Positions 6,758 through 57,707 of a stretch of DNA of 64,000 nucleotides are shown piece after piece. The stretch is from an uncultured Acidobacteriota bacterium. Its GTDB lineage: Bacteria > Acidobacteriota > Blastocatellia > RBC074. Under the pieces are notes generated by a model, which saw only the letters and a list, made by a program, of their open reading frames with translations, was not told the origin of the DNA and did no database searches. Both the position numbers and the translations under genes were made by a program. The stretch is taken from contig CAWCKY010000006.1 in NCBI GenBank assembly GCA_963796275.1, forward strand, positions 160,001 to 224,000, written 5' to 3'. How positions within the stretch are numbered: position 1 is the stretch's first letter; every line of letters starts with the position of its first letter.

Positions 6758-6812
6758 CGGAAGAGGAAATTCTGCAAACCAACAACCTGGAGCAAGAAGG
6801 AGGAGAAAGACT

Positions 6813-7829: not shown

Positions 7830-7915
7830 GGCCTGGGTAAGGGCCGTAGAAATTGGAAATGGGAGAAAAACTTTTTCCATTTCGCGGTCCGCTGAAGGTT
7901 GGGGTGAAGAAAATT

Positions 7916-9948: not shown

Positions 9949-10036
9949 TTGGCTTCTTTGGAAAGCCCATAGAAGATCAGTCGGTCTGGTGGCGAAAGCA
10001 GCGCGAACTAACAGTTCGCCAAACATCAAGGTAGTT

Positions 10037-37200: not shown

Positions 37201-38831
37201 AGGTGGGAATTCACGATAACTTCTTTTCGGCGCTGGGCGGAGATTCGATTCTCAGCATTCAAATCATCGCCAGAGCCAATCAGGCAGGTCTCAAGCTTAC
37301 CCCCAGGATTATTTTCGAGCGTCAGACGGTCGCCGGGTTGGCCGAGGTGGCCGGAGCCGGTGCGACCATTGAGTCGGAGCAAGGCCTGGTGACTGGCGAT
37401 GCTCCGCTCACTCCCATCCAACGCTGGTTCTTCGAGCGAAATTTTACCGACCGGCATCACTGGAATCAGGCTCTGCTGTTTGAAGCGCGACAGGCCATGG
37501 AACCTGCGCTGTTGGAGAAGGTGGTGCGGCGGCTACTTGCGCATCACGACGCGCTTCGATTGCGCTTCGTTAATGAAGACTTGGGATGGCGGCAGTTCAG
37601 CTCCGACCTGGAGGGACCGGCGCCCTTTGCGCATCTAGACCTGTCGTCGCTCTCCGAGTCGGAGCAAAAAACGGCGGTTGAGGTCGCCGCTGCTGCGCTG
37701 CAAGCCAGTATGAACCTGTCGGAAGGGCCGCTCCTGCGGGTCGCCTTCTTCGATCGTGGCAAGGAGAAACCGTGCCGTCTGCTGATAGCCATCCACCATC
37801 TGGCTGTTGACGGCGTGTCGTGGCGAATCCTGCTGGAAGATTTACATACGGGCTATCAGCAGTTGAGTAGCGGGGCGGAATTCAAGTTGCCGCCGAAGAC
37901 GACCTCGTTCAAGCGTTGGGCTGAAAGGTTGGAGGAATACGCGCAGTCGGAAGCTTTACGACAGGAGGCGGCTTACTGGCTGACGGAGTCTAGCAAACGA
38001 GTCCGCCGCCTGCCGGTGGATTTTCCTGGGGGCGCTAACACCGTGGATTCATCCGCTACAGTGACGGTTTCGCTCAGCCAGGAGGAGACGCGAGCGCTGT
38101 TGCATCAGGCGCCGGAAGCTTACCGCACTCAGATCAATGAGGTGCTGCTGGCCGCTCTGGCGCAAGGCTTCGCCCGGTGGACCGGAGCGCGCTCTCTGCT
38201 GATAGACCTGGAGGGACATGGGCGTGAAGAGATCATCGAGGATGTAGTCCTCTGGCGAACGGTTGGCTGGTTCACTACCCACTTTCCGGTATTACTCGAT
38301 CTTGGGATTAGCGCTGATCCGGGCGCTGCCTTGAAGATAATAAAAGAGCGACTACGGGCCGTTCCGAACCACGGGATTGGGTATGGTGTGTTGCGCTACC
38401 TTAGCAGGAAGGAGGAGATCGTTGAGCCGCTGCGAGCGGCGCCTCAACCCGAGGTGAGTTTCAATTACCTGGGTCAGTTCGATCAGGCTTTGCCCGACAC
38501 CTCTCCGTTCCGGCCGGCCGGTGAATCCATTGGCCCTCTCCAAAGCTCAGGGGGAGAACGCAGCCACCTGCTCTATTTCAGTGGAAACGTAGCAGGGGGG
38601 CAGATGCGCCTGACCTGCATCTACAGCCGCAACCTTTATCGCAGCGCCACGATTGAAGAGTTGACCGGGAACATCGTGGACGCGCTTCGATCGATCATCA
38701 CTCATTGCCAGTCGGCTGAAGCGGGCGGCTTTACGCCTTCCGACTTTACGCTGGCGAGACTGGATGAGCGGAAGCTGGATCGAATATCCAGCCTTCTTGA
38801 TGAAATTGATGACATGCAGGAAGCAGAGTGA
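34217..38831 (+). CDS. NRPS5: interface C* - A(Asp) - T - E (+1 frameshift at ~36499)
   Basis: ORFs 34217..36688 and 36513..38831 join just after NHYGPTETTVGS. LPSLCAD motif; code DLTKIGHVGK; GGDSI T domain; E domain HHLAVDGVSW; ends with an FTPSDF COM-like tail. Confidence 0.9.
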
Positions 38832-38894
38832 GAATAAATAACGTTTGAACAGTGCCGCGAGCGTAAGCAAGCGGTCAAATATCAGGAGGAAGGA

Positions 38895-40406
38895 ATGGTT
38901 CGCTTGACAAAATTAAGTTTCGGATTGGTTATCGGTTTAGTCCTATCTTTCGCCGGCTCTCCGCCCATTACTTCATCGAGCGCTTCGCAGGGCAGCGGAG
39001 TGATAGTAGTGAGTCCATTGTCCCATGATTTCGGCAGTATAGTGGAGCAAGTCCAGGAAGTAACCGGCGTGATTGAGGTGCTAAACGATGGGCCTTCAAA
39101 CCTGGTGGTGAATGAGCTTAGGATGGTGGGGCAGAACCCGATGGAGTTTCATTTTCTCGCCCAATGGCCGTTCACCTTGGCCCCGGGAGACCGACGCCAA
39201 ATTATAGTCAGCTTCGCGCCGACTTCTACAGGTCAAAAGGGGGCGGTGTTGCAGATCAGGAGCAGCGCCACGAACCAGGCGCAGGTGGATGTGCAGTTGA
39301 GTGGCAACGGTCTCAGTCTGGAGGGTTTGGGGCGGATTACTGCGTCAGCAACTTCAAACGTATCTAATCCGACCCCGGGCTCCTCGATTACGGTTGATGT
39401 CCGTGTTGATATGCGTGAGGCTAACCCGCCTGCTGATCTACTTCAATCCTACCAGGCCAGCCTGTCTTGGGATCCTGCGGTGTTGGATTTTCACGGATTT
39501 TCTCAAGGGGAACAGCCCTGGAGCAGTCCCGTGTCGATCAGTCAGTCAAGCGGCAATGCAACATGGCATGACGTAGCAACCGCCGCGGTGGGTGGTACGT
39601 TTTTGATTCTTCAACTCAAGTTCAGCGTGATTGGAGGGGCAGGTTCCAGCACTAACCTGAACCTGGAATTTTCGAGAATGGAAGGTAAAGATGTCGAGAG
39701 GCTTCTCCCCCTCTTAACCACTTCGGGTAGCACGGTCACGATATCGGCTCAGGCCGGTCCCCCGGACATCGCGGTTACTCCCGCCTCTTTCACTTACGGC
39801 GTTGTGACTGTCGGAGCGAGCAGCTTCCAGACATTTGTGGTCAGGAACGACGGCGCGCAGAGCTTGACGGTCAGTTCAACGGCGCTGGGAGGGCTGCATG
39901 CGAACCAGTTTTCGATCGAAATCGGAGGCGGATCATTCGTCTTGGCTCCCGGCGGGAGTCGAGAGGTGGTGATCGGTTTTAAACCGACTCGGACTGGGGC
40001 GAAGATGGCATTTTTGAACATCAGCAGCAATGATCCGGATGAACACACGTTCACCGTGACGTTGAACGGTAACGTTTCCGCGCCCGACATAGAGGCCACA
40101 CCATCCTCTCTCGCCTTCGGTAACGTGGTGGCAGGTTTACTCGTGACTAGGACTTTTACGGTGCGTAATCGAGGTACGGGCCTTCTTATTCTATCTATGT
40201 TCCAATTGGATGGGCATCAGCTTCAGTTCTCCTTCAATACCGCTACGCCAGTTATCCTGGGGCCAGGGAGTAGCAGGAACATCGTGATCAATTTCCACCC
40301 GAGCACAGTAGGAGCGAAGACCGCCGTTTTTGTTATAAGCTCGAATGACCCAGATGAGGGCACAGTCGAAATCCCGCTGAGCGGTAATGGAGTGACTGGT
40401 CAGTAG
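38895..40406 (+). CDS. Secreted protein with three ASH/choice-of-anchor-D Ig-like repeats and a cohesin-like domain
   Basis: N-terminal signal-like hydrophobic stretch; three repeats of the pattern P.S..(F/Y)G.....V.N.G...L...PG......F.PT..G.K.A, two of them ending SNDPDE; central domain with a LSWDPAVLDF cohesin-like motif; RBS aggagg. Confidence 0.75.
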   Translation: MVRLTKLSFGLVIGLVLSFAGSPPITSSSASQGSGVIVVSPLSHDFGSIVEQVQEVTGVIEVLNDGPSNLVVNELRMVGQNPMEFHFLAQWPFTLAPGDRRQIIVSFAPTSTGQKGAVLQIRSSATNQAQVDVQLSGNGLSLEGLGRITASATSNVSNPTPGSSITVDVRVDMREANPPADLLQSYQASLSWDPAVLDFHGFSQGEQPWSSPVSISQSSGNATWHDVATAAVGGTFLILQLKFSVIGGAGSSTNLNLEFSRMEGKDVERLLPLLTTSGSTVTISAQAGPPDIAVTPASFTYGVVTVGASSFQTFVVRNDGAQSLTVSSTALGGLHANQFSIEIGGGSFVLAPGGSREVVIGFKPTRTGAKMAFLNISSNDPDEHTFTVTLNGNVSAPDIEATPSSLAFGNVVAGLLVTRTFTVRNRGTGLLILSMFQLDGHQLQFSFNTATPVILGPGSSRNIVINFHPSTVGAKTAVFVISSNDPDEGTVEIPLSGNGVTGQ

Positions 40407-40407
40407 C

Positions 40408-40801
40408 TAGTACTGTGGAAACAAAGTTTTTGATGTTTAAATGACGCTTCAAGTTCGAAACAGTACCGCGAGCAGTAGCGATCATGTCTCAATCAACTGA
40501 AGCGTGTGCAAATTAAAATCCAACAGAATCAATAGTCTCGCATCTCAGCGCCGGAGGCGCGTAATGTCTATAGCTCACGATCCTAACCATAACCTGAGCT
40601 CCGGAGGAGCGATATATGAATGCCTACATGTCGCTCCTCCGGAGCTCGTGAAACTTTGGTGATCGAATACTATAAATATCCCGCGCCTCTGGCGCTTAGG
40701 TCCGAAAATACTGATTCAAATTATCTTTTATTTGCACAGTCTTCATTCAACTGGCTCGGGTACAACGCTCGCTACCGCTCGCGGTACCGATTCGAACTTG
40801 A
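40408..40801. mobile_element. Nested REP/MITE-like element A, copy 1
   Basis: Outer ~33-bp inverted arms (40449..40481 / 40769..40801) enclose an inner unit bounded by TGTGCAAAT / ATTTGCACA that contains GAGCTCCGGAGGAGCGA / TCGCTCCTCCGGAGCTC; repeated at 44113..44501. Confidence 0.8.
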
Positions 40802-40810
40802 CTCCCCGTC

Positions 40811-41222
40811 TATTGATATTCAGTTTGGTCGTTTAACGCCCATGCCGAATTGCTGCGTAGCGGCAGGGATGAGTCTAATCGGGCGTTTCAACGCCGGCAC
40901 CGGCATTCTTCGCCGCGTTAGCGGCGATTGAGTGTAGCCGTGGGTTTCAACCCACGGTAGACACGTGAGATTGTCCCCGCGTCGCGTCAGCGACGCTTGA
41001 CTCAACCGTCGCTGACGCGACGGGGAGCGTTTTCCTGGATTTCCGTGCGTTAAAACGCACGGCTACATTCACGCCGTCGCTACGCGACGAAGAAGGTGAA
41101 TATTTCGTACGAAAGTTTGGGCAATGATAAGGCGTTGAAACGCCGGGCTATATCCATAGCATCGCGTCGCGGCGGAAGCGGAGCAGGCAATCTTTGTAAA
41201 ACCGATTGCCTGAAGCCCAATA
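40811..41222. mobile_element. MITE-like element B, copy 1, with internal GTAG-type REP doublet
   Basis: Ends TATTGATATTCAG / CTGAAGCCCAATA; internal GTAGCCGTGGGTTTCAACCCACGG...CCGTGCGTTAAAACGCACGGCTAC (40934..41066) with CGTCGCGTCAGCGACG / CGTCGCTGACGCGACG. Confidence 0.8.
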
Positions 41223-41400
41223 AAACATCAAATAACTTAATTTACAAGAGTTTCTAGTACTTGCAAGAGCAGGAAAGCAAAAGGGCAAAAAAGGGGAGAC
41301 CTTCTCCCTTTCTTGCCCTTTTTGCTTCTCACGCTTCGGTTGTTTCATCCCCTGATGAAAATGAGGGTGAGTTTGAAGTCTTTGCAGGAGAGGCATCGCA

Positions 41401-43806
41401 ATGAAGAACGTTGAAGATATCTACCCTCTGTCGCCCGTGCAACAAGGGATGCTCTTCCATGCCGTGTATGATCCGAAGGGAGGCATGTATCTGGAGCAAA
41501 AGACCTGTACTTTGCACGGCGACCTTGATGTTACGTCATTTGAACGCGCCTGGCAGCGCGTGGTAGAGCGGCATCCAGTTTTACGGACTGCCTTTGTATG
41601 GCGAGGATTGGATGAACCGATGCAGGTTGTCCGCCATAAGGTAAAACTGTCCTGGACGCGGGAAGATTGGCGCAGGCTTTCGCCGGAGGAGCAGCAGGCG
41701 CAGTCGTCGGCTTTCCTGCAAATGGATCGAACGCAGGGCCTGGAACTATCCAAGGCTCCGCTGATGCGTCTGGCATTATTCCGTTTGGCTGATGACGCTT
41801 ACCAATTTACCTGGACTCACCACCACATACTTCTGGATGGATGGTCCATGCCCACCCTCTTTAAGGAAGTCTTCGCTTTTTATGAAGCGTTCCGGCAGGG
41901 CGCCGACCTGCACATGGAAAAGAGCCGTCCCTACCGGGACTACATCGCCTGGTTGCAGCATCAGGACCTCTCGCAAGCCGAGGCTTTCTGGCGGAATGAG
42001 CTTAAAGGCTTCACCACCCCAACTCCCTTGTGGGTTAGCCGGGATGGGTCGTCTGGCGATGATGAGATCTACGGCGAGCAACACTTGACATTATCCGAGC
42101 AGGAGACATTCGCTCTGCAGTCTTTGACGCAGCGGCATCAACTCACCATGAACACTCTGGTTCAGGGAGCTTGGGGGCTGCTCCTAAGCTGTTATAGCCG
42201 GCAAAAAGACGTGGTCTTTGGCTCTACCGTATCCGGACGTCCGGCTGAACTAGCCGGGGTCGAAACGATATTCGGGATATTCATCAATACCCTTCCTGTG
42301 CGAGTGCGGATAACAGCTCAGGCTCCACTACTACCATGGCTCAAGGAACTCCAGGCCCGGCAGGTCGAGATGAGGCAGTACGAGTATAGCCCGCTGGCGC
42401 AGGTTCAGGGCTGGAGCGAGGCGCCAAGGGGGCGCCCACTGTTCGAGAGCATTCTGGTGTTTGAGAACTACCCTGTAAATGGAGCCTCGGATGGGCAGAG
42501 TCCAAGCCTCAAGATAAGGAATTTTCAGGATCTCGCGAAGTTGAATTACCCGCTTGTGGTCAAAGCGTGGCTGAGTGCAACGCTCTCGTTGGGAACATTG
42601 CACGATGGCTATCTCTTTGACGACGCAACCATCGCTCGACTGCTGCGATGTTTGAAAATGCTTCTCAACAGCATGGCTGCCCGGCCCGAAGCCCAGCTTG
42701 GCGAACTAGAAAAAATCGTTATGGAAACGGAAAGGGGAGAGCGAGTTATGGAACAGAGAAAACGCAAAGAGGCCAATCTGGCGAGTTTCAGGCAGGTCAC
42801 GCCCAGGGCTGTCGGCCTGTCACGAGAAGAGGTGGTCAAGACCGGTTATCTAAAAGCCGATCAAACCTTCCCGCTGGTAATACAACCCGCGCTGGAAGAT
42901 ATCGATCTGGCGGACTGGGCCAAAGGCAACCTGAAATTTATCGAAGCGGAATTGCTGAAGCATGGCAGCATTCTTTTTCGCGGATTCGGCGTGAACTCGA
43001 CATCCGAGTTCGAGAGATTCGCATCGGCGATTCGCCCGGATCTGTTCGGCGAATACGGAGACCTGCCTCGCGAGGGAGTCAGCGACAAAGTCTACAAATC
43101 AACCCCTTACCCCGAGAACAAGACGATTCTGTTTCATAACGAAGGCTCGCACACGGACCGCTGGCCGATGAAGCAATGGTTTTACTGTGTGAAACCGGCG
43201 CAGGTGGGAGGAGAAACGCCGATCGTTGATTGTCGAAAGGTTTACCAGCGCCTCGATCCGAGGATCGTGGAAAACTTTAGGCGAAGGAAGCTGAGGTACG
43301 TCCGAAATTTCCACGAAGGCCTGGATGTGAGTTGGCAGACCTTCTTTCGCACAACCGAGCGGGCAGTGGTCGAGCAGGGCCTCCTCGCTCATTCGACGGA
43401 GTTTGAATGGACCAGCGACGGTGGGCTGCGTACCTATCAGATCAGTCCGGGCGTAGCCAGACACCCTAAGACGGGTGAAATGTCCTTCTTCAATCAGGTC
43501 CAGTTGCACCACATGGCTTTCCTGGATCCCGCGCTTCGTCACTCCGTCGAGTCTCTATTCAAGCCTGAATGGTTTCCGCGCAATGTCTCTTACGGTGACG
43601 GCTCTCCGATTGAGGATTCAGTTATGGAAGAGATTCTATCTGTGTACTGGGATACGGCGGTAGCCTTCCCCTGGAGTAAGGGAGACGTGTTGATGAATGA
43701 CAACATGCTGGTCGCGCACGCGCGCAACCCGTTTCAGGGGGAGCGGAAGATCGTGGTGGCGATGGCGGAAATGATGACGATTGATGATCTCCGCGATTCC
43801 TATTGA
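41401..43806 (+). CDS. NRPS6: C(D-donor type) - TauD fusion (integrated beta-hydroxylase), no A or T domain
   Basis: IYPLSPVQQG and HHILLDGWS C domain followed by HGSILFRG, ILFHNEGSH, GGETPIVD, FFNQVQL and DNMLVAHAR dioxygenase motifs. Confidence 0.92.
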   Translation: MKNVEDIYPLSPVQQGMLFHAVYDPKGGMYLEQKTCTLHGDLDVTSFERAWQRVVERHPVLRTAFVWRGLDEPMQVVRHKVKLSWTREDWRRLSPEEQQAQSSAFLQMDRTQGLELSKAPLMRLALFRLADDAYQFTWTHHHILLDGWSMPTLFKEVFAFYEAFRQGADLHMEKSRPYRDYIAWLQHQDLSQAEAFWRNELKGFTTPTPLWVSRDGSSGDDEIYGEQHLTLSEQETFALQSLTQRHQLTMNTLVQGAWGLLLSCYSRQKDVVFGSTVSGRPAELAGVETIFGIFINTLPVRVRITAQAPLLPWLKELQARQVEMRQYEYSPLAQVQGWSEAPRGRPLFESILVFENYPVNGASDGQSPSLKIRNFQDLAKLNYPLVVKAWLSATLSLGTLHDGYLFDDATIARLLRCLKMLLNSMAARPEAQLGELEKIVMETERGERVMEQRKRKEANLASFRQVTPRAVGLSREEVVKTGYLKADQTFPLVIQPALEDIDLADWAKGNLKFIEAELLKHGSILFRGFGVNSTSEFERFASAIRPDLFGEYGDLPREGVSDKVYKSTPYPENKTILFHNEGSHTDRWPMKQWFYCVKPAQVGGETPIVDCRKVYQRLDPRIVENFRRRKLRYVRNFHEGLDVSWQTFFRTTERAVVEQGLLAHSTEFEWTSDGGLRTYQISPGVARHPKTGEMSFFNQVQLHHMAFLDPALRHSVESLFKPEWFPRNVSYGDGSPIEDSVMEEILSVYWDTAVAFPWSKGDVLMNDNMLVAHARNPFQGERKIVVAMAEMMTIDDLRDSY

Positions 43807-44046
43807 CATTCAGTTCGGTCGTTTTAATGCCCATGCCGAATTGCCGCGTAGCGGCAGGGATGAGTCTTATCCGGCGTTCAACGCTGCACGGGCATCCATC
43901 GTCGCTACGCGACGAAGAAGGTGTACATTTCGTGCGAAAGTTTGGATATAAGAAGGCGTTGAAATGCTGGGTTACATCCATAGCATCGCGATGGGGCGGA
44001 ATCGAAGCAGACAATCTTTGATAATCCGATTGCCTGAAACTCAATA
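43801..44046. mobile_element. MITE-like element B, copy 2 (lacks the internal REP doublet)
   Basis: Aligns to both ends of 40811..41222; ends TATTGACATTCAG / CTGAAACTCAATA. Confidence 0.8.
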
Positions 44047-44112
44047 CATCGGAACAACCAAAAGAGGAAGAGCTGTTAGTCTGTTTTAAACCAAGCCAGA
44101 AACATAACAGCT

Positions 44113-44501
44113 TAGTACTCTGTAAACAAAGTTATTTGATGTTTCAATGCGCGCTTCAAGTTCGAAACAGTACCGCGAGCGGTAGCGAGCTTGTCTCAAT
44201 CAAACTGAAACGTGTGCAAATTAAAATCCAACAGAATCAATAGTCTCGCATCTCAGCGCCGGAGGCGCGTAATGTCTATAGCTCACGATCCTAACCATAC
44301 CTGAGCTCCGGAGGAGCGACATCTGATTGCCTACATGTCGCTCCTCCGGAGCTCGTGAGACTTTGGTGATCGAATACTATAAATATCCCGCGCCTCTGGC
44401 GCTCAGGACCGAAAATGCTGATTCCAATTATCTTTTATTTGCACAGTCTTCAATCAACTAGCTCGGGTACAACACTTGCTACCGTTCTCGGCACTGTTTC
44501 G
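44113..44501. mobile_element. Nested REP/MITE-like element A, copy 2
   Basis: High-identity direct repeat of 40408..40801. Confidence 0.8.
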
Positions 44502-44693
44502 TCGATTATCGAGAAACTTAGTTAACAGGTTACTCAGCTTATAGCGATTTTCAGTTACGCGGAGAATTATGGGATGGCGGGGTCTTTAGCATCAGCCCAG
44601 TCTGCATGCGCGACGCCGTACTCTAAAGGCTCTGCCATGCTACGACATACTTATTCACCAGAAAACTGCAGTTAGGGTAAGGGTGAGAGTGTT

Positions 44694-45671
44694 ATGCAAG
44701 CTTTACAAGTAGTTGAATTGAAGTCTTTTTCGAAGTTGCAAGTAAGCAATGCTATCGAATCCGTCCAGAGATTTTTCACCAACCCAGTTCCGGCCAATTT
44801 GATGAAAGCGTTCCGGATTTTCTTCGCGTGTCATATCTTTTTACAAAGTTTAAAGCTCTCTTGGGTACCATTTGGTATTAGCAGCCGGATCGTATTATTC
44901 GTGCAATTGGCGGCGCTTGCCGCTGTCTTCGCAAATTTTCACAGACGACTCTACTATCCTGGCCTCCTTTTGTTGTTGTTGCTTAAGTTATATGGAGTTG
45001 CCTATAAATTTCCAATGACAGCGAACCATCATTTTCTGGAGTTGTACGTGCTCCTTTTTCTGCTGTTGTGGCCTGATCGATCGATTGGTCAAGGGACCGA
45101 CAAACAAGAGACGAAACAAGTGAGTAGCGAATCTTGTCATCTCGCTCGGTTACTCGTCCTATCCGTTTATTTCTTCGCCGGTATCCAAAAACTTATTCAT
45201 GGAATCTGGCTTAACGGAGAATACCTTGCCCATAGCCTTATTGAGGTAACCAACGGCACACTTCTTACCACGCAATATATGCTTAGATTTATCGCGAGTA
45301 TTTCGGGATCACCGCTTGTTGAAATACCGCTCAACCTATCTCTGGACGCGCATATGGTCATGATAACGATTCCGAGCTGGGTAGTTGTTTATTTTCTTGG
45401 CATGAGTTGGGTTACGATCGCAAGTGAGATTGCTATTCCGCTGCTTGTCGTGTTCCGCCGGACCCGGAAAATCGGCCTGCGCTTGATGCTCGTTCTGACA
45501 ATAATTATTGGCCTCCTCGCTTTCGAAACGGAATTTATGTTTGCATCGGTTGGTTGCGCCCTTCTATTTTTCCACGACAAGGGGATACGTAACTACAGCA
45601 TGTTACTGGCAGCCCATATAGTTTGGTCGCTGTCTCTTCTATTCGCGGGCGTTCGCGTTGGAACGTTATAG
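44694..45671 (+). CDS. HTTM / vitamin-K-dependent gamma-carboxylase-like integral membrane protein
   Basis: Multiple hydrophobic helices; ANHHFL, LSVYFFAGIQKL...WLNGE and EIAIPLLVVFRRTRKIG segments match, by eye, the HTTM pattern NHxYL / VYFxAGxxKL..W..G / xxxFLL..xxTR. Confidence 0.7.
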   Translation: MQALQVVELKSFSKLQVSNAIESVQRFFTNPVPANLMKAFRIFFACHIFLQSLKLSWVPFGISSRIVLFVQLAALAAVFANFHRRLYYPGLLLLLLLKLYGVAYKFPMTANHHFLELYVLLFLLLWPDRSIGQGTDKQETKQVSSESCHLARLLVLSVYFFAGIQKLIHGIWLNGEYLAHSLIEVTNGTLLTTQYMLRFIASISGSPLVEIPLNLSLDAHMVMITIPSWVVVYFLGMSWVTIASEIAIPLLVVFRRTRKIGLRLMLVLTIIIGLLAFETEFMFASVGCALLFFHDKGIRNYSMLLAAHIVWSLSLLFAGVRVGTL

Positions 45672-45700
45672 TAACGAGCATTTAGCAAAGGCAGGTACTT

Positions 45701-46342
45701 ATGATAGATCGGTTGAGAGTCAAACTGGTCATAACACTAGCATGCGTTCTTCTTATCTGGCCAGTTGCGCATATAACGCTTTCGTTATTTGGGGGTCTTA
45801 ATTCCTGGAAGCTGGGAGGATGGGGGATGTATGCGAGCATACCTCCGGAAGATACATACATCAACGTGTTTCTGATCGGCGCGAATAGTGGACCTTTAAC
45901 GGAAATGAGGGTGAGCTCGCTTATTAAGCGAAATCGGCCGTCGCTATTTGTAAACGGTGAGACCATTGTCCTTGATGGACAGTCTTTTAATGGAGAAATA
46001 AAGTCCGTCGACTTCTCTTCATATACAAAGGATATAGTGGTGTTTCGCCGGGGAAGCGCTATCAAGGCCATGGTAGAGCAGATACAAAAGCACTTGCTTG
46101 ATCCGGTAGCGATAAGCCACACATTGGTTTTCATCTCGCAGCTACGGTTATCAATATCCAGCCGAATGGCTTATACCGAATCAGAGGTGTATTTGATAAG
46201 GAATGACTGTGTCGAGAAGCTCGGTGTTTATAGTAACGATAAGCATGAAATTAAGGAGATTCTCGACATGGTTGGAGCTCAAGTAGATCGAGAGTGTAGC
46301 AAAACCCCAAAGGGCAAGATTACGGTAGGAAGTTTGAGATGA
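45701..46342 (+). CDS. Single-pass membrane-anchored hypothetical protein, likely partner of the HTTM protein
   Basis: 213-aa ORF 30 nt downstream of the HTTM gene; N-terminal TM helix followed by WKLGGWGMYA, resembling the GW.MF/YA motif seen in HTTM C-terminal or partner domains; same AT-richer composition. Confidence 0.6.
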   Translation: MIDRLRVKLVITLACVLLIWPVAHITLSLFGGLNSWKLGGWGMYASIPPEDTYINVFLIGANSGPLTEMRVSSLIKRNRPSLFVNGETIVLDGQSFNGEIKSVDFSSYTKDIVVFRRGSAIKAMVEQIQKHLLDPVAISHTLVFISQLRLSISSRMAYTESEVYLIRNDCVEKLGVYSNDKHEIKEILDMVGAQVDRECSKTPKGKITVGSLR

Positions 46343-46424
46343 GTTTGCCAGGGAAGAAGTAAAAAAGGCTAAGCAGGGCAAAACAGGGCAAAAAACTTAT
46401 TTTATAAGTGGGCTCGGCACAACA

Positions 46425-49400
46425 ATGGAGAGACAGATGCAAACAAAAGCGGAAGGATTTCGGCTCTCGCCGCAACAGAAACTACTCTGGCAGTCACATT
46501 ACGATGGCCAGGCGTACTTTACCCAGGGTGCCTTACTTCTCGAGGGAGAGCTGAAAATCAAAGCTCTGAAAGGGGCTTTGCGAGAGGTCATCGCTCGGCA
46601 TGAGATTCTACGTACGACCTTTCACCGCTTACCTGGCATGAAGCTGCCAGTACAGGTCATCGGCGCCAAAAGCGCGATGGCTTGGCGGAGCAGAAAATTA
46701 GGCGAGCTGGATTCCAAGCGCCAGGCCGCCAGAATCGAAGAGCTTTTCCTGGCGGAGCGGCGCCATCCTCTCGACTTTGAACAAGGCCCTGTCTTACGTG
46801 CAACCCTGCTCATCCTGTCGGCGGGACGGCATATTTTGCTGATCACGCTGCCTTCGCTTTGCGCAGACAACCGGACGCTAAGGAACCTGGCGGACGAGAT
46901 CGGCCAGTTCTATGCCGCGTCTTTTGATGGCGGTTTGGCACCTGACAATTCGATACAGTATGTCCAATTCTCCGAATGGCGGAATTCAATGCTCGAAAGA
47001 GAGGATGCGGAAGAAGGGAAAGAATACTGGCGGCAACAAAATCTCTCCGCCCCGCATGCCTTGAAACTTCCGTATGAATGCGCATCTCCGGAAACATCAG
47101 GGTTTGAGCCGGAGTCGCTGGGTTTGATGATTGATGCTGAATCTGTATACAGGATAGAGGCGGCTGCCCAGAAATATGAGACTACGATGGAGACCTTCCT
47201 GCTAGCCTGCTGGCAGACGCTGCTCTGGCGGCTCACGGGCAAGCCGGATGTTCTCGTTGGCCACGTTCGTGACGGAAGGGAACATGAGATGCTGCAGGGC
47301 GCCATTGGGTTATTCGCCAAGTGGCTGCCGGTTAAATCTCGTTTCGAGAGCGACACTTCGTTCGTCGACATCCTGTCGCAATCCGGTGAGGCGGTCTGGG
47401 ATGGGTACGAATGGCAGGAATACTTCTCCTGGTCAGAAGAATTAGGGCTGGGATCCGAAAACTCGATTGCGCCGATCGGGTTCGAGTTCATGGAATTGGT
47501 CGAGCCACGCCGCGCGGCTAATCTCATAATCTCAATCTACAAGCAATCCAGCTTCACTCAGCGTTTCAAGCTACTGCTATCCTGCGATCGCGCAGGGGAC
47601 TGTCTGAACATCACACTTTACTACGACCCCGCCCGATACGAACGCGACGATGTCAAACGCATTGGGAGCCACTTCGCCGCGCTGACTGAGAGCGCTGCCA
47701 GCGATCCCGATGCTCTGGCCGGCGAGCTCGATCTGCTCAGCGCGGATGACCGAAGATTGCTGGTCGAGTTCAATCAAACCGCCGCCGTCGAGTGGAACGA
47801 TACCAAAGTTGAATATCCGGTGGAACACTCGTTGCCCGCCTTGTTCGAAGCGCAGGTTGAACGAACGCCTGAGGCTGTGGCGCTTGTTTATGAAGACACG
47901 CAAGTGACTTACCGGGAGTTGAATGATCGCGCCGATCGATTGGCTCATCATCTGCGGCGACTGGGCGTCGAGCCGGAGTTACTTGTGGGCGTTTGCATGG
48001 AGCGGTCGCTGGAGATGATGGTGGGGATTCTCGGAGTGTTGAAGGCTGGGGGCGCTTACGTTCCACTCGATCCGGCGTATCCGGCAGAGCGTCTGGCCTT
48101 CATGCTTGAAGATTCCCAAGCGCCAGTCTTGTTGACTCAGCAGCGGCTGCTCGAACTGTTGCCAGAGCATCATGCGAAAGTCGTGCTCCTTGACTCGCTA
48201 CCGTCCGAATCCGGCGCAAGCTCAGGTGACATTTTTACGAATGATGTCACAGATGCCAACCCGGCTTACGCCATTTATACCTCCGGCTCGACCGGCCGTC
48301 CGAAGGGCGTGATGATTTCTCATCGCGCGATCGTGAATCGGTTGTTGTGGGGACAATCGGCTTACTGTCTGACCGGAGATGACAAGGTATTACAAAGCGC
48401 CGCTCTCGGATTCGATTTCTCAGTTTGGGAGATATTCGGCGCGCTCATAGCGGGCGCTCAATTGGTCCTGCCGCAGCCGGAGGGACAAAGAGACAGTTTT
48501 TATCTCAGGAGACTAATTGCCGAGAGGGGGATCACAATCGCCCACTTCGCCCCCTCCATGCTCCGGCTTTTTCTGAATCAGCCGAGCGTCGAGACGTGTC
48601 ACTCTCTGAGATATGTTTTCTCGGGCGGCGAAGCTCTCTCCGTCGAGCTACAGGAATATTTTTTCGCCAAGCTGGAGGCGGAGCTATATAACCAATACGG
48701 CCCGACAGAGGCGTCTGTCGACGTCACGTTCTGGCGTTGCAAGAAGGAAGACGACAAGCAAACGGTGCCCATCGGCCGCCCGATCGCCAACACACAAATC
48801 TACCTGCTGAATTCTGAGATGCAGCCCGCGCCGGTGGGCGTTGCGGGCGAACTGCACATAGGCGGCGCCAATCTGGCTCGCGGGTATCTCAATCGGCCAG
48901 AGTTGACCGCCGAGCGGTTCGTTCCCAACGCCTTCAGTGAAGAGCCCGACGCACGGTTGTACCGGACGGGAGACCTGGCGCGATACCTGCCGGACGGGGC
49001 CATCGAATTTCTGGGACGGAGCGATCATCAGGTGAAGGTGCGCGGGGTGCGCATCGAACTGGGCGAGGTCGAGGCGGCGCTCAGCCAGCATCCCGCGGTG
49101 CGGGAAGCGGTGGTCGTGGCGCGGGACGAGGGTGAGGACGCGGCCGGAGACAAACGGTTGGTGGCTTATCTGGTCAGCGACCAGCAGCCGGCGCCGACAG
49201 CCGGCGCCTGGCGCGCCTTCCTGAAGGAGAGGGTGCCGGAGTACATGACGCCGTCGGCCTTCGTGACGCTCGACGCATTGCCGTTGACGCCGAACGGGAA
49301 GATCGATCGGCGCGCGCTTCCGGCTCCCGAAAAGGCGCGCCTCGACTTGGAGAGCGCCTTTGTCGCGCCGCGCAATCCGGTCGAGGAGTTGTTGGCGGAG

Positions 49401-52400
49401 ACCTGGGCCAGTGTCCTCGGGGTGGAGAGAGTGGGAATTCACGATAACTTCTTCTCGCTGGGCGGACACTCATTGCTGGCCATGAAACTGATCGCGCGGA
49501 AGCTGGAGGTCTTCCAGGTGGAACTGCCGCTGCGCCAACTTTTTGAAAAGCCGACGGTGGCGCAATTGGCGGCAGCGATCGTCGGGATGACGAAGCCCGG
49601 GCTGGATCTGCCGCCGATCACGCCGATCCCACGCGATCGGGAACTACCGCTCTCGTTTTCGCAGCAGCGGTTGTGGTTTCTCGATCAACTGGAGCCTGGC
49701 AACTCTTTCTACAACGTGCCCGCGCCGGTGCGCCTCACGGGCGAGCTCAATGTGGCGGCGCTCCGGCAAACCATTGGCGAAATCATCAGACGTCACGAAG
49801 TCTTGCGGACGGTCTATCAAACAGTCGAGGGGAGTCCGGTACAGGTGATCACAAACTCATACTCATTCACGCTGCCGGTGGTTGATTTGAGAGGGGTGGC
49901 GGAAGAGGAACGAGAGGCGACGGTCGCGCGTCTGGTCACGGAAGACTCCCTGCGGCCCTTCGATCTGGCCGAAGGCCCATTGTTCAGAGTCGCATTGCTG
50001 CAATTGGGGGCCGAGGATCATGTTTTGCTATTTACCACGCACCACATCATCTCCGACGTCTGGTCCAAGGGGGTGCTGACGCGAGAGGTTGCGGCGCTCT
50101 ATCAGGCATTCGCCGAAGGAAGACCGTCGCCGCTGCCGGAATTGGCGGTTCAGTATGCCGATTTCGCGCACTGGCAACGGGGATGGTTGCAGGGAGAGGT
50201 TCTCGATGAGCAGTTGTCATACTGGAAGCGGCAATTGGCGGGCAGCCCATCAGTTTTGCAATTGCCCACGGATCGTCCGCGGCCAGCCGTTCAATCATAT
50301 CGGGGGGCCGACCTGGCGATGGCGTTACCCGAAGGGCTGTCGCGGGCGGTGGTGGGATCTGAGCAGGCGCGAGGGCGTCACCCTCTTTATGACGCTGTTG
50401 GCGGCTTATCAAGCGATGCTGTTCCGCTACACAGGGGAGGAGAGCATCAATGTCGGCTCTCCCATCGCGGGCCGCACGCGCCCGGAGACGGAGGGGATGA
50501 TCGGGTTTTTCCTGAACACGCTGGTGTTCCGGACGGATTTTTCGGGCGACCCGAGCTTTCGCGAGTTGTTGCGGCAGGTGCGAGAGACATCGCTGGAAGC
50601 ATACGCCCATCAGGATTTGCCCTTCGAGCAATTGGTAGAGGCGTTGCAACCTGAACGGAAGATGAGCCACTCGCCGCTGTTTCAGGCGGCCTTCGTGATG
50701 CTCAATCTTGCAACGGAGGCGGTGGAGCTTCCGGGTCTGAAGATGCGGCCTGTGAGGGGGGAGGGAAATAGCGCGAAATACGATTTGACACTGTTCGTCA
50801 TCGAAGGCCGCGATGGACTGACGGCGAACGTGGAGTACAGCGCCGATCTGTTCGAGGCCTCTACCATGGCGAGGATGTTGGAGCATTTCTTCGTGTTGCT
50901 GGAAGGCTTGATCGCCAACCAGGATCAGCGTGTGTCATCCCTGCCGCTGATGACCGAGCGGGAGGAGGCGCAGGCGCTGGTCGAGTGGAACGATACCAAA
51001 GTTGAATATCCGGTGGAACACTCGTTGCCCGCCTTGTTCGAAGCGCAGGTTGAACGAACGCCCGAGGCTGTGGCGCTTGTTTATGAAGACACGCAAGTGA
51101 CTTATCGGGAGTTGAATGATCGCGCCAATCGTCTGGCCCATCATCTGCGGCGACTGGGCGTCGAGCCGGAGTTGCTGGTGGGCGTTTGCATGGAGCGGTC
51201 GCTTGAGATGATGGTGGGGATTCTCGGAGTGTTGAAGGCTGGGGGCGCTTACGTTCCACTCGATCCGGCGTATCCGGCGGAGCGTCTGGCCTTCATGCTT
51301 GAAGATTCCCAAGCGCCAGTCTTGTTGACTCAGCAGCGGCTGCTCGATTCGTTATCCGCAACGAGCAATTCGCAATGCCATGTGATTTGTGTGGATGCGA
51401 TAGAGGAGATGCTGGCAGAAGAGAGCGTAGAGAATCCGGCGAGTGGGCCGGACGCCGAGCATCCGGCTTACGTGATCTATACTTCAGGTTCAACGGGACA
51501 GCCCAAAGGCGTGCTCATCTCCCACGGCGCGATCTGCAATCATATGTTATGGCAGTTGAGCCATTTGTCCGTGACCGCGAACGATTGCGTTCTGCAAAAA
51601 ACGGCTTTCAGCTTCGACGCTTCGGGCACGGAGTTCTACCTGCCGCTGTTGGCCGGCGCGCGACTGGTTCTGGCCCAGCCGGGAGGGCATCAAGACGTCG
51701 CCTACCTGATCGATGCGATGATCGAGCGCCAGGTCACCATTCTTCAGTTGGTTCCATCATTGCTGCGAGCGTTGTCGGACGAGCCCAGGTTTGAGCGATG
51801 CGAGAGCCTGAGGCGCGTCATCTGCGCGGGCGAGCCTTTGCTACCCAAGTTACAGGCGCGGTTCAACGCCTGCCTCGGCGCGGAGTTGCACAATCTTTAC
51901 GGCCCGACGGAAGCGGCCATCGACGTGACTTGCTGGCCTCACCAGGATGCGCGGGGGGCGGCTATCGTTCCTATCGGCCGCCCGATCGCCAACACACAAA
52001 TCTACCTGCTGAACTCTGAGATGCAGCCCGCGCCGGTGGGCGTTGCGGGCGAACTGCACATAGGCGGCGCCAATCTGGCTCGCGGGTATCTCAATCGGCC
52101 AGAGTTGACCGCCGAGCGGTTCGTTCCCAACGCCTTCAGTGAAGAGCCCGACGCACGGTTGTACCGGACGGGAGACCTGGCGCGATACCTGCCGGACGGG
52201 GCCATCGAATTTCTGGGACGGAGCGATCATCAGGTGAAGGTGCGCGGGGTGCGCATCGAACTGGGCGAGGTCGAGGCGGCGCTCAGCCAGCATCCCGCGG
52301 TGCGGGAAGCGGTGGTCGTGGCGCGGGACGAGGGTGAGGACGCGGCCGGAGACAAACGGTTGGTGGCTTATCTGGTCAGCGACCAGCAGCCGGCGCCGAC

Positions 52401-55400
52401 AGCCGGCGCCTGGCGCGCCTTCCTGAAGGAGAGGGTGCCGGAGTACATGACGCCGTCGGCCTTCGTGACGCTCGACGCATTGCCGTTGACGCCGAACGGG
52501 AAGATCGATCGGCGCGCGCTTCCGGCTCCCGAAAAGGCGCGCCTCGACTTGGAGAGCGCCTTTGTCGCGCCGCGCAATCCGGTCGAGGAGTTGTTGGCGG
52601 AGACCTGGGCCAGTGTCCTCGGGGTGGAGAGAGTGGGAATTCACGATAACTTCTTCTCGCTGGGCGGACACTCATTGCTGGCCATGAAACTGATCACGCG
52701 AATGCGTGGGATCTTCCAGGTGGAACTGTCGCTGCGCCAACTTTTTGAAAAGCCGACGGTGGCGCAATTGGCGGCAGCGATCGTCGGGATGACGAAGCCC
52801 GGGCTGGATCTGCCGCCGATCACGCCGATCCCACGCGATCGGGAACTACCGCTCTCGTTTTCGCAGCAGCGGTTGTGGTTTCTCGATCAACTGGAGCCTG
52901 GCAACTCTTTCTACAACGTGCCCGCGCCGGTGCGCCTCACGGGCGAGCTCAATGTGGCGGCGCTCCGGCAAACCATTGGCGAAATCATCAGACGTCACGA
53001 AGTCTTGCGGACGGTCTATCAAACAGTCGAGGGGAGTCCGGTACAGGTGATCACAAACTCATACTCATTCACGCTGCCGGTGGTTGATTTGAGAGGGGTG
53101 GCGGAAGAGGAACGAGAGGCGACGGTCGCGCGTCTGGTCACGGAAGACTCCCTGCGGCCCTTCGATCTGGCCGAAGGCCCATTGTTCAGAGTCGCATTGC
53201 TGCAATTGGGGGCCGAGGATCATGTTTTGCTATTTACCACGCACCACATCATCTCCGACGTCTGGTCCAAGGGGGTGCTGACGCGAGAGGTTGCGGCGCT
53301 CTATCAGGCATTCGCCGAAGGAAGACCGTCGCCGCTGCCGGAATTGGCGGTTCAGTATGCCGATTTCGCGCACTGGCAACGGGGATGGTTGCAGGGAGAG
53401 GTTCTCGATGAGCAGTTGTCATACTGGAAGCGGCAATTGGCGGGCAGCCCATCAGTTTTGCAATTGCCCACGGATCGTCCGCGGCCAGCCGTTCAATCAT
53501 ATCGGGGGGCCGACCTGGCGATGGCGTTACCCGAAGGGCTGTCGCGGGCGGTGGTGGGATCTGAGCAGGCGCGAGGGCGTCACCCTCTTTATGACGCTGT
53601 TGGCGGCTTATCAAGCGATGCTGTTCCGCTACACAGGGGAGGAGAGCATCAATGTCGGCTCTCCCATCGCGGGCCGCACGCGCCCGGAGACGGAGGGGAT
53701 GATCGGGTTTTTCCTGAACACGCTGGTGTTCCGGACGGATTTTTCGGGCGACCCGAGCTTTCGCGAGTTGTTGCGGCAGGTGCGAGAGACATCGCTGGAA
53801 GCATACGCCCATCAGGATTTGCCCTTCGAGCAATTGGTAGAGGCGTTGCAACCTGAACGGAAGATGAGCCACTCGCCGCTGTTTCAGGCGGCCTTCGTGA
53901 TGCTCAATCTTGCAACGGAGGCGGTGGAGCTTCCGGGTCTGAAGATGCGGCCTGTGAGGGGGGAGGGAAATAGCGCGAAATACGATTTGACACTGTTCGT
54001 CATCGAAGGCCGCGATGGACTGACGGCGAACGTGGAGTACAGCGCCGATCTGTTCGAGGCCTCTACCATGGCGAGGATGTTGGAGCATTTCTTCGTGTTG
54101 CTGGAAGGCTTGATCGCCAACCAGGATCAGCGTGTGTCATCTCTGCCGCTGATGACCAGTGCGGAACGTAACCGCCTATTGTCAGAGTGGAATGGCACTG
54201 TGTCTGAGTATCCACGCCATGAATGCGTTCATGAGTTATTCGAGACGCAGGTTGAGCGTAGACCTGAAGCGATTGCGATAGTGGGCGAGGAAAATCACCT
54301 GACCTATGGAGAACTCAACCGACGCGCAAATCAACTGGCGCATTACCTGCTTAAGCATGGCGCCGGGCCGGAGACGCCGGTGGCTATCTGCGTTGAGCGT
54401 TCTTCGAAGATAGTTTTGGGATTCTTGGGCATACTTAAGGCGGGCGCCGCCTTTGCACCACTGGATCCAGCCTATCCTGAAGACCGCCTGGCCTTCATAC
54501 TCAATGATGTCCGGGCGCCGCTGCTCTTGACCCAGGAGCGGCTGGTCGAAGAATTACGAAACACCGGAAACGGAACGCACAATACGGAGAGTTATGCTCA
54601 AAACTCCATATTCAAACCTCAATACTCAATCTCCGATCTGCGCGCTGGAGACGGAAGGCGGAATGCGAGTAGTATCGCTCAAGACTCAATCTTCAATCCT
54701 CAAGACTCAATCTCCGATCTGCACGCTGGAGATGGAAGGCGGAATGCGAGTAGTATCGCTCAAGACTCAATCTTAATACCCCACCACCCAACCTCCGAAC
54801 CGCATTCCGCATTCCGCGTTCCCGAAGCGGTCTGTCTGGACTCAGACTGGGAGTTCATCGCCCTGGAAAGCCAGCAGAATCCAACCTGCATAGCTGCGCC
54901 TGAAAACCTGGCTTATGTCATCTATACCTCGGGTTCAACTGGCGCTCCTAAAGGTACGCCGATAACACACAGGAATCTCAGCCCACTAATGCACTGGAGC
55001 AAGGAATATTTCAACCTCGGCGAGTGCACGAAGGTACTGCAAAATCTCAACTGCTGTTTTGATTTTGGCGTTTTCGAGCTATTAACCACAGTCCTATTTG
55101 GCGGGACATTACATTTTGTGGATGGAGATGGGCTGAGTGATTTTTCAGAGTATGCCAGCTATATCAATAGACATCGAATTAATACCATTCATTCTACTCC
55201 GTCATTCGTTAGGAATCTTCTCCCTTTTAGTGATGAACTGGAGAATCTGGAAACGATTCACCTCGGCGGCGAGCCGTTAACGGGGGATTTGGTTGATAAG
55301 GTATTCAATAAAGTCGGAGGCGATTGCGTACTCTACAACGGCTACGGCCCTACTGAAGCCACCGTCAATTGTTCCATCTTTAGAATCGGTAATTGGTCAA

Positions 55401-56341
55401 CCTGGATTGATAGAGCTTTGACGAATATTCCGATTGGGAAAGCGTCAGCCAATAATCTTCTCTATATCCTCGATAAGAATTGCGAACCTGCGCCTATAGG
55501 TATCCCTGGAGAACTATATGTTGGCGGCGGAGGGTTGACTCGCGGCTACCTCGATCGAGCCGCGTTGACCGCCGAAGCATTCGTCCCCAACCCCTTCAGT
55601 CATGAACCAGGTGCGCGGCTATACAAGACTGGCGACCTGGCTCGATACCTGTCCGACGGGAACATAGAGTTCCTGGGCCGCAGCGACCATCAAGTCAAAG
55701 TCCGCGGCTTTCGTATCGAATTGGCGGAGATCGAAGCGGTATTGGCTCAACACCCGGCCGTCCGGGAAGCCGTCGTGTTGGCCCGCGAGGAGGTGGCCGG
55801 CGAGAAACGACTGGTGGCGTACGTCGCGCTCGATCCTATCGAGGGGGGCGCCGCGCCAAACGGCGTAAAACTGAGAAGCTACTTGCGGCAAAGGCTGCCT
55901 GAGTACATGACGCCGTCCGTCTTCGTCGAATTGGGCGCCCTGCCGCTGACGCCGAACGGGAAGGTGGATCGCCGTGCGCTTCCGGCTCCCGAGAAGACGC
56001 GCCCGGATTTGGAGAGCGCATTCGCCGCGCCTCGCAATCCAATAGAAGAAAAGCTGGCCGAAATCACCGCGCAGATTCTCCGGATCGAAAAGCCAGGGAT
56101 TCACGACAATTTCTTTGAATTGGGCGGGCATTCGTTATTGGCGACTCAGTTCATATCCCGCGTGCGCAACGCTTTCCAGGTGGAGTTGACTCTGCGGAGC
56201 GTTTTTACCGGACCCACGATCGCCGAACTTGCCGAAGCGATTGAGAAGGCCAGGGATGGCGGACTTGAGCCGGCCGCGCCCGCGATGAAAGCAATTCCCA
56301 GAGAGACAAGACGGGTCAAAACCACAACATTATCCAAATGA
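46425..56341 (+). CDS. NRPS7: interface C* - A(X) - T - C - A(Y) - T - C - A(Z) - T (+1 frameshifts at ~50355 and ~53557)
   Basis: ORFs 46425..50654, 50089..53856 and 53291..56341 join when one G is removed from GTGGGATCTG in each C domain (restoring AVV-D-L-SRREG). LPSLCAD; three A domains with unusual codes DFWHFGQVDK, DATQIALIDK and DFFHHGGVNK; three GGHSL T domains. Confidence 0.88.
48771..50955 (+). repeat. Duplicated A(C-terminal part)-T-C block, copy 1; copy 2 at 51973..54157
   Basis: Constant offset 3202, nearly identical, including the same extra G. Confidence 0.95.
51973..54157 (+). repeat. Duplicated A(C-terminal part)-T-C block, copy 2
   Basis: Matches 48771..50955. Confidence 0.95.
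54596..54774 (+). repeat. In-frame 81-bp (27-aa) tandem repeat, about 2.2 copies
   Basis: ACTCAATCTCCGATCTG at 54624 and 54705; translation repeats SISDL.AGDGRRNASSIAQDSI. Confidence 0.93.
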
Positions 56342-57621: not shown

Positions 57622-57707
57622 AGTTGTTTAAGCAGTGAGGCGAAAGCTGCGCGGTAAAACCGTTACACCTTTGAAAATTTTGCCTGCGCACTTAAGAGGG
57701 GAAGAGC

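Follow-up and report, generated by a model that had tools for sequence, protein, structure and literature searches.

A two-gene cassette in an Acidobacteriota non-ribosomal peptide cluster encodes a divergent HTTM/GGCX-superfamily protein with its own partner domain, probably a recent acquisition

Genes at the locus

The window analysed here is a 64,000-nucleotide stretch of DNA from an uncultured Acidobacteriota bacterium (contig CAWCKY010000006.1, positions 160,001 to 224,000), and it is occupied by one long non-ribosomal peptide synthetase (NRPS) cluster. Between a gene for a Condensation-TauD (C-TauD) protein and the NRPS7 gene of this cluster lies a cassette of two genes, P0001 and P0002, which is the subject of this study. 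A preceding sequence-only reading had placed such a cassette here, on the same strand as its neighbours, and had described it as an AT-richer insertion coding for a vitamin-K-carboxylase-like membrane enzyme and a partner; both open reading frames (ORFs) prove to be intact. The features of the region are as follows.

44694-45671, plus strand: P0001, an intact ORF with a translation of 325 amino acids (aa); putative catalytic subunit, a polytopic membrane protein divergent within the HTTM/GGCX superfamily
45701-46342, plus strand: P0002, an intact ORF of 213 aa; putative partner subunit with an N-terminal transmembrane (TM) helix followed by an alpha/beta domain of unmatched fold
43807-44693, no strand assigned: non-coding leader of 887 nt with 47.4% guanine plus cytosine (GC), between C-TauD and P0001
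41401-43806, plus strand: upstream flank, C-TauD gene (Pfam Condensation 7e-98, TauD 1.9e-45), outside the cassette and given as context
46425-50654, plus strand: downstream flank, NRPS7 gene with C-A-T-C domains by Pfam, beginning 82 nt past P0002 and given as context

The two cassette genes are separated by 29 nt and share the strand of the flanking NRPS genes. The motifs picked out by the sequence-only reading are all present, with NHHFL at residues 111-115 and VYFFAGIQKL at residues 158-167 of P0001, and GWGMYA at residues 40-45 of P0002. Its remark on composition also holds: the cassette has 45.1% GC compared to 54.3% in the 9.46-Mb genome, which places it at the 0.78th percentile of 1650-bp genome windows, and the GC content at third codon positions is 0.49-0.50 in the cassette genes versus 0.64-0.66 in the flanking NRPS genes.

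The ATG at 45701 is favoured as the start of P0002 because the N-terminus that follows it is conserved in homologues and in fused forms. The database entry for the window's own partner (P0009, 171 aa) begins at M43, right after GGAGG; with this start, the protein would be without its conserved TM helix and without the GWG of GWGMYA. In the leader, the ORF listing contains no ORF of at least 80 aa, and the ORFs that begin there do not exceed 72 aa; a minus-strand ORF of 140 aa (43622-44044) extends into its 5' end. An Rfam scan of 43700-46500 returned nothing real. A promoter and terminator scan yielded fewer sites than its shuffles, and no terminator-like site was found in the gap between P0002 and NRPS7 (46343-46424). 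One soil-metagenome DNA run, which holds a tenth of the words, gave short contigs that match parts of 41000-48000, including 44689-44932, and none of these spans the cassette junctions. The run search listed no RNA sequencing run containing the region.

P0001 is a divergent member of the HTTM/GGCX superfamily

The membership of P0001 in the HTTM/GGCX superfamily is supported by profile-profile and fold comparison, and it is seen only in this way. A match to the HTTM model had been proposed as a check in the sequence-only reading; P0001 has no match to this model (PF05090), and searching all six frames of the entire genome with it gave 0 matches at E<=1. The Pfam models DoxX and MauE did not match P0001 either. 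An exhaustive search collected a P0001 family of 167 representative clusters (50% identity) at E<=1e-3, including 71 at E<=1e-10; the conservation values and Pfam counts given here for the family cover 150 of these 167 representatives. Pfam HTTM is reached by 7 of the 150 at E<=0.01 (best 1.3e-7), MauE is touched by 10 (best 3.9e-5) and DoxX by 2 (best 3.3e-3), and those MauE matches that were listed span only about 45 residues.

By superposing profiles rather than single sequences, the relationship becomes apparent. With hhalign, a single bona fide HTTM+VKGC_lumenal protein (Pfam 1e-89 and 5e-41) is matched by the family profile at 94.5% and E 8.2e-8, and BLASTP of P0001 against this protein gives E 3e-7 over the Lys region. 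Against an alignment of 27 bona fide HTTM+VKGC proteins, the family profile reaches 98.0% and E 2.1e-13 over 227 columns, that is, the whole domain. Those 27 proteins in turn align with human GGCX at E 1e-77, and their invariant Lys lies beneath K218 of GGCX.

The fold comparison leads to the same superfamily. The AlphaFold model of P0001 has a pLDDT of 72.7 and a pTM of 0.71. In a Foldseek search of this model against the PDB, human GGCX takes each of the first 15 ranks (E 1e-4 to 6e-3, prob 1.00, TMq 0.46-0.51), and rank 16 falls to E 0.11 with prob 0.12. VIA aligned 231-249 residues of P0001 with GGCX at Z 12.9-14.1 and a root-mean-square deviation of 4.2-5.1 Å, and the next chain has Z 5.6. 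The fold matches span the entire 8-helix core of GGCX, at an identity of approximately 16-17%. A homologue that is 88% identical to P0001 (P0003) retains every invariant residue.

Catalytic and pocket residues

The residue equivalences between P0001 and GGCX were obtained by chaining two alignments, that of the family with the 27 HTTM proteins and that of those 27 with GGCX. They are listed below.

P0001 K166: GGCX K218
P0001 E245: GGCX D263
P0001 N111/H112: GGCX N159/H160
P0001 W172: GGCX W223
P0001 F281: GGCX F299

E116 of P0001 is also listed among the key residues. The sequence-only reading had taken the lysine of P0001 to be equivalent to the catalytic base of the carboxylase, and K166 does fall under K218 in these chained alignments, with support from the fold. 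The residues P107, N111, H112, K166, G170, G175, E245 and F281 are each retained in at least 90% of the 150 representatives, so the motifs of P0001 are not a product of chance.

The roles of the corresponding GGCX residues have been described. In the accessible part of a recent preprint, K218 is the base, D263 is its helper and N290 binds the quinol (bioRxiv 10.64898/2026.03.26.714578). According to the available text of a second source, N159, H160 and Y395 hold the Glu carboxylate, and M401 and M402 form the wall between the pockets (PMC12589487). In the portion of a third source at hand, the substitutions N159A, H160A, W223A, F299A and Y395A impair carboxylation (PMC12647623).

P0002 and the split enzyme

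P0002 was said in the sequence-only reading to carry a TM anchor, and residues 2-30 do form a single long helix in the model (pLDDT 69.2). W20, G40, W41, G42, M43 and Y44 do not vary among 15 partner sequences, and P21 hardly varies; W36 also stands in the segment after the TM helix, ahead of G40-W-G-M-Y44. Relatives of P0002 were few in the word-indexed search. At 9 of 13 homologous loci, a partner-like sequence adjoins or is fused to the HTTM-like gene, in the following arrangements.

Partner downstream of the HTTM-like gene: L004, L005, L007, L008, L026, L027
Partner upstream of the HTTM-like gene: L028
Partner in the same ORF as the HTTM-like part: L002, L003
The 4 remaining loci: L006 and L009, which stop at a contig edge; L010, a genuine HTTM+VKGC protein; L029, a distant match

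Five longer family members (P0080, P0096, P0097, P0035 and P0085) are also matched by the partner profile in their C-terminal parts (E 2e-23 to 1.5e-11), and WGMY is found in 4 of these 5. In the fused protein P0080, the partner helix starts within about 12 residues of the HTTM core, a layout that gives a GGCX-like plan of core, ninth helix and outside domain. P0001 has an extra C-terminal helix (297-317), and the fused forms appear to lack such a helix. The fused forms at L002 (1770-3131, 453 aa) and L003 (689-1840, 383 aa) come from metagenome-assembled genomes of Candidatus Binatia, and each of these genes adjoins two large opposite-strand ORFs (about 800 and 1203 aa) without any Pfam match.

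P0001 and P0002 are the two halves of one enzyme, which is split into two genes here, as the sequence-only reading had supposed, and fused in other taxa. The predicted complex of the two proteins, in which GWGMY comes to lie at the active site, fits this relation. Its median ipSAE is 0.85 (runs 0.76, 0.88 and 0.85) compared to 0.00 for the best of 3 controls; 58 of 80 solved complexes reach the mark used, as do 2 of 110 mismatched pairs. The runs have at least 90% of their contacts in common, and the pLDDT of the partner does not fall below 81. In the model, partner helix 6-29 packs on P0001 residues 111-126 and 146-169, the helices bearing N111/H112 and K166, and partner residues 35-51, including GWGMY, lie on P0001 residues 161-189 and 215-226, over the active site. 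The model score indicates likeness and not binding, and it may partly be memory because GGCX structures have already been solved.

The family to which P0002 belongs was sought in several ways. P0002 and its 14 aligned relatives gave nothing in Pfam at E<=10 beyond chance-level matches, and NCBIfam likewise has no family for P0002. An SdpA model had been put forward as a check, and P0002 and its relatives have no SdpA match at E<=10; since neither DUF5819 nor SdpA appears for the 15 partner sequences at this threshold, P0002 is not a recognisable member of either family. The VKGC lumenal domain (PF22777) was considered as a candidate and rejected: none of the 15 partners matches it in Pfam, and hhalign of the partner against the 27 HTTM+VKGC proteins gives 0.8%. 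The same hhalign comparison lends no sequence support to a likeness with the GGCX linker 374-418 (Y395, W399, M401, M402), and the trimmed TM-linker regions give E 0.39. At the level of fold, Foldseek found no PDB match at E<=0.001 (best E 0.065), and VIA found none at Z>=5 over 48,161 chains (best Z 4.5), with GGCX absent from its list. In the protein Atlas, the nearest clusters consist only of unnamed hypothetical proteins.

Homologous loci and signs of insertion

Of the 13 homologous loci, 9 are 6.8-20 kb long. The sequence-only reading had proposed checking whether homologues are enriched beside NRPS genes; in tblastn the C-TauD and NRPS7 proteins match 0 of the 13 loci, and the homologous cassettes lie outside NRPS clusters. 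Of the refuting outcomes named in that reading, homologues found mainly outside biosynthetic clusters is one that has largely come about. Neighbours vary from locus to locus, and none is conserved except the partner. At the metagenomic locus L007, a gene of the fatty-acid hydroxylase/sterol-desaturase family (3753-4736) directly follows the partner gene. The P0001 family is found in 0 of 40 relatives and in 12 of 401 genomes of the phylum.

A repeat resembling a miniature inverted-repeat transposable element (MITE) lies in the leader, a short way upstream of P0001.

44113-44543, plus strand: MITE-like repeat copy, with outer inverted arms at 44163-44189 and 44475-44501 (27 nt) and a perfect 20-nt hairpin at 44303-44354

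This palindromic, non-coding repeat of about 250-430 nt has 78 matches (both strands counted) at 66-95% identity on contigs C1-C4, C6 and C7, and it corresponds to no family in Rfam. A second copy lies at 40408-40794, so that the two copies bracket the C-TauD gene in its intergenic gaps.

On a 7-kb syntenic contig of one relative (G014), the C-TauD orthologue (73% identical) follows immediately on the end of the NRPS gene before it, and the slot between the C-TauD and NRPS7 orthologues holds, instead of the pair, a FabH-like ketoacyl synthase III (KAS III) gene of 333 aa with normal GC content (L050 4630-5631, on G014:C127; ACP_syn_III 3.7e-34). The genome of the window has no close copy of this gene; the best match is 43% identical and lies on another contig. 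The presence of KAS III in the slot hints at a lipidated product in G014, and at a slot whose content varies.

Relative to the junction of NRPS and C-TauD genes in G014, the window has approximately 2.55 kb of extra sequence at 38847-41400. This stretch holds a 503-aa protein of repeated immunoglobulin-like domains (Cep192_D4/ASH/DUF1573, 38895-40406) and a MITE-like copy that overlaps a 103-aa ORF.

The surrounding cluster and cofactor supply

The NRPS had been called Asp-rich in the sequence-only reading. Among nine adenylation (A) domains located by their A5 motifs, 3 show the D-L-T...H...V-G pattern of the Asp code; this was a crude check, in which code extraction was clean for only part of the nine domains.

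Other genes of the cluster include, at 4943-11089, a carbamoyltransferase, an OTCase-like gene, a PALP enzyme with an ornithine-cyclodeaminase-like gene, and a free-standing TauD. The pairing of PALP enzyme and ornithine cyclodeaminase presumably follows the SbnA/SbnB pattern for diaminopropionate. Two MacB/FtsX permeases are encoded at 56338-58961, and from 62297 onward there is a TubC-type docking domain. The NRPS frames are broken at 11122-19139, 34217-38831 and 46425-56341, where Condensation or adenylation domains are interrupted and resume in an overlapping ORF of a different frame (for example, 46425-50654, 50089-53856 and 53291-56341). Either the long-read assembly (7 contigs, 9.46 Mb) contains frameshift errors at these breaks, or the cluster is truly decaying.

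A quinone-dependent enzyme, as the sequence-only reading had envisaged, would find its cofactor in this organism, whose genome carries genes of both the menaquinone pathway and the VKOR family. There are two MqnA-family (futalosine pathway) genes, both on C1, and no match to the MenA model TIGR00751 in the genome. The two VKOR-family genes are at C6:247659-248054 and C3:797930-798292; the former shares the contig of the cassette, about 42 kb downstream of it and about 24 kb past the end of the window.

Proposed mechanism and origin of the pair

Based on the results presented above, we think it rather probable that the pair is one two-piece, divergent HTTM/GGCX quinol-dependent enzyme, and that it is a recent accessory insert in the cluster, not an ancestral tailoring step. 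By homology, P0001 would be the catalytic membrane core, in which K166 would, as the base, take a proton from a reduced naphthoquinone (menaquinol) with the assistance of E245. Oxygenation of the quinol would then give a strong base, and N111/H112, at the outer end of a neighbouring helix, may hold the group to be deprotonated. P0002 would provide the role that the ninth helix and the following linker play in one-piece relatives: its TM helix is predicted to pack against the two catalytic helices, its GWGMY loop would cover the active site, and its extracytoplasmic domain probably selects the substrate. The homology, the basic N-terminus of P0002 and the basic 255-259 loop suggest that the active site faces outward. 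The pair would have been acquired horizontally into a variable slot of the cluster, and the comparative evidence speaks against an ancestral role in the NRPS pathway. As to the substrate, the chance that it is an envelope component or some other molecule outside the class of non-ribosomal peptides is nearly even; the exported peptide is possible with clearly lower likelihood, and a role in self-protection seems unlikely.

Several observations weigh against this explanation or parts of it. P0001 matches 0 Pfam families at E<=1 and no NCBIfam model, and the family profiles have 0 matches to PDB sequences at E<=10. The P0001 model is of only moderate quality (pLDDT 72.7), its TM-scores to GGCX are about 0.5, and the column of the quinol-binding N290 of GGCX is hydrophobic in the family consensus. 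A likeness of the partner to the ninth TM helix and linker of GGCX is not supported by the sequence comparison (0.8%; E 0.39). With respect to the insertion, the low GC content could in part come from membrane-protein composition, the closest homologues (P0003 at 88%, P0008 and P0010) are not placed in contigs, and the G014 synteny rests on a contig of only 7 kb. The cassette lies on the strand of the cluster, 82 nt before NRPS7 with no terminator-like site between, and both ORFs are intact with all conserved residues kept, which counts against a mere passenger. So do MloH and the linaridin HTTM proteins, which are precedents for HTTM-type enzymes in peptide natural-product pathways.

Alternative explanations

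The position of the cassette within the cluster, on the same strand and so close to NRPS7, is what first suggests a tailoring enzyme, namely, a menaquinol-, O2- and CO2-dependent carboxylase (or a related C-H activating modifier) that acts on Asp or beta-hydroxy-Asp of the peptide, probably at the membrane while the peptide is exported or afterwards. N111/H112, W172 and F281 align with GGCX residues that are needed for carboxylation and not for epoxidation alone, and the complex model puts the Trp-x-Met-aromatic loop of the partner at the active site. The cluster contributes 3 of 9 A domains that look Asp-type by their code, two TauD hydroxylases and MacB-type exporters, and the genome contributes the menaquinone and VKOR genes; in the accessible part of its description, MloH carboxylates an Asp-derived residue in malonomycin. 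On the other hand, NRPS genes accompany the pair at 0 of 13 homologous loci, where the partner is the sole conserved neighbour, and the orthologous cluster of G014 has KAS III in the slot and no family member in its genome. Moreover, the cassette is a compositional outlier beside a mobile-looking repeat, a VKGC lumenal domain was not found, and the active site would face outward while NRPS assembly is cytoplasmic. We therefore hold tailoring of the peptide to be conceivable but doubtful, and action on its acidic residues, which the sequence-only reading had suggested, is not favoured. Its most specific form, a two-subunit menaquinol/O2/bicarbonate carboxylase at the outer face of the membrane that makes aminomalonate-like or gamma-carboxyglutamate-like side chains on Asp or beta-hydroxy-Asp of an exported Asp-rich lipopeptide, appears quite unlikely; if true, 'blood-clotting' chemistry would have been captured to sharpen the Ca2+ or Fe3+ binding of a non-ribosomal peptide, by way of an enzyme family and a substrate-recognition domain to which databases have so far given no name.

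The same variety of contexts, in which the pair is free-standing, suggests a substrate common to every cell, and it could be read as self-protection or envelope remodelling: the pair would modify a membrane lipid, quinone or envelope component of the producer, and would be retained in the cluster because the producer thereby becomes less sensitive to the (lipo)peptide. The fatty-acid hydroxylase/desaturase-family gene directly after the partner at L007 and the lipid-related KAS III gene in the slot of G014 agree with this; however, a lipid enzyme adjoins the pair at only 1 of 13 loci, and a lipid substrate is without direct evidence, so we judge this explanation improbable. A still slighter chance, which we put close to negligible, attaches to P0001 being a relative in fold only, either a redox accessory or structural membrane protein like DoxX and MauE, small membrane proteins of the same Pfam clan, or a decaying passenger without function. 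Besides HTTM (7 of 150), the family does touch MauE (10 of 150) and DoxX (2 of 150), P0001 itself matches none of these models, and the N290 equivalent is lost. Against this, the listed MauE matches extend over no more than about 45 residues, at least 90% of the 150 representatives preserve the HTTM-specific NH and Lys motifs, the ORFs are intact, the 88%-identical homologue retains every invariant residue, and the fold match spans the whole 8-helix core of GGCX.

Significance

In GGCX, oxygenation of a quinol generates so strong a base that an unactivated carbon can be carboxylated. To our knowledge, this chemistry is known outside animals in one natural-product pathway only, that of MloH. 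The P0001 family is a sizeable one (167 representative clusters) that curated models have missed, and it keeps the catalytic and substrate-pocket residues, the N290 column aside. It brings its own second subunit, split or fused, with an extracytoplasmic domain of unmatched fold. Such a pair offers a tractable bacterial system for the roles of HTTM enzymes beyond blood clotting, in which the linker and clamp of GGCX would be supplied in trans. The pair represents an HTTM clade that databases do not show, with a partner domain of its own, and was probably acquired recently into a variable slot. Since the copy in this soil bacterium is the only one seen inside an NRPS cluster, the cassette is a natural place to test recruitment to peptide tailoring; the comparative evidence warns that the pair may be a bystander of the cluster.

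Comparison with known systems

The linaridin clusters, which make peptides that are synthesized on ribosomes and modified after translation, keep an HTTM-domain protein such as CrdG, as stated in the accessible part of their description (PMC9927463). P0001 resembles these proteins in being an HTTM-type membrane protein in a peptide natural-product cluster. The linaridin proteins, as far as that description goes, are set apart from P0001 in that the standard HTTM model recognises them and their pathways are ribosomal.

A closer parallel in sequence is provided by the truncated GGCX-like 'vitamin K epoxidases' of giant viruses, which, in the available text of the preprint, keep the catalytic Lys, have Glu for D263 and have a hydrophobic residue for N290; they are fused to or adjoin desaturases, and lipid modification has been proposed for them (bioRxiv 10.64898/2026.03.26.714578). 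P0001 shares these three features, with its catalytic Lys, a Glu at the D263 column and a hydrophobic residue at the N290 column, and the desaturase-family neighbour at L007 recalls the viral epoxidase-desaturase fusions. Unlike the P0001 family, which has a dedicated partner, conserved or fused, the viral enzymes as described there are without the 374-418 region and without a partner ORF.

The partner arrangement itself has relatives. SdpB and SdpA of Bacillus subtilis are a pair of this kind, an HTTM protein and its partner. HTTM+DUF5819 pairs consist, in the accessible part of their description, of an HTTM protein and an adjacent one-TM partner, which is predicted to occupy the clamp/lumenal site of GGCX and is fused to the HTTM protein elsewhere (bioRxiv 10.64898/2026.08.19.745780); the data set of this preprint may bear on whether the P0001 family has already been modelled. 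As in these systems, insofar as that text covers them, P0001 has a single-pass partner next to it, for which binding to P0001 is predicted and which is fused to the HTTM-like part in other genomes. The differences are that P0002 is not recognisably in either partner family, that P0001 falls outside Pfam HTTM, and that a DCC1-like domain is absent.

MloH is related to GGCX and carboxylates an Asp-derived residue in malonomycin, according to the available portions of two sources (PMC12647623; bioRxiv 10.64898/2026.08.19.745780), and the latter, in the same portion, describes it as a one-piece protein in which an HTTM region is fused to a DUF5819-like region (bioRxiv 10.64898/2026.08.19.745780). 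Compared by this description, the pair differs from MloH in that neither a DUF5819 nor a VKGC domain can be detected in it, and it lacks an orthologue in the G014 cluster. What the two share, on the same partial description, is an HTTM-superfamily enzyme inside a (hybrid) NRPS cluster; malonomycin derives from Asp and diaminopropionate, and the cluster in the window has SbnA/SbnB-like genes.

Human GGCX is the closest comparison in structure. In contrast to GGCX, the pair is split over two genes and lies below every curated HMM threshold, the domain of P0002 is not VKGC lumenal by sequence, and P0001 has no N290 equivalent and carries the extra helix 297-317. P0001 nevertheless has the fold of the GGCX membrane core (Z 13-14), profile homology to it and five aligned residue positions, and like GGCX, this core would be completed, in the P0001+P0002 pair, by a further TM helix, a Trp-x-Met loop and an extramembrane domain.

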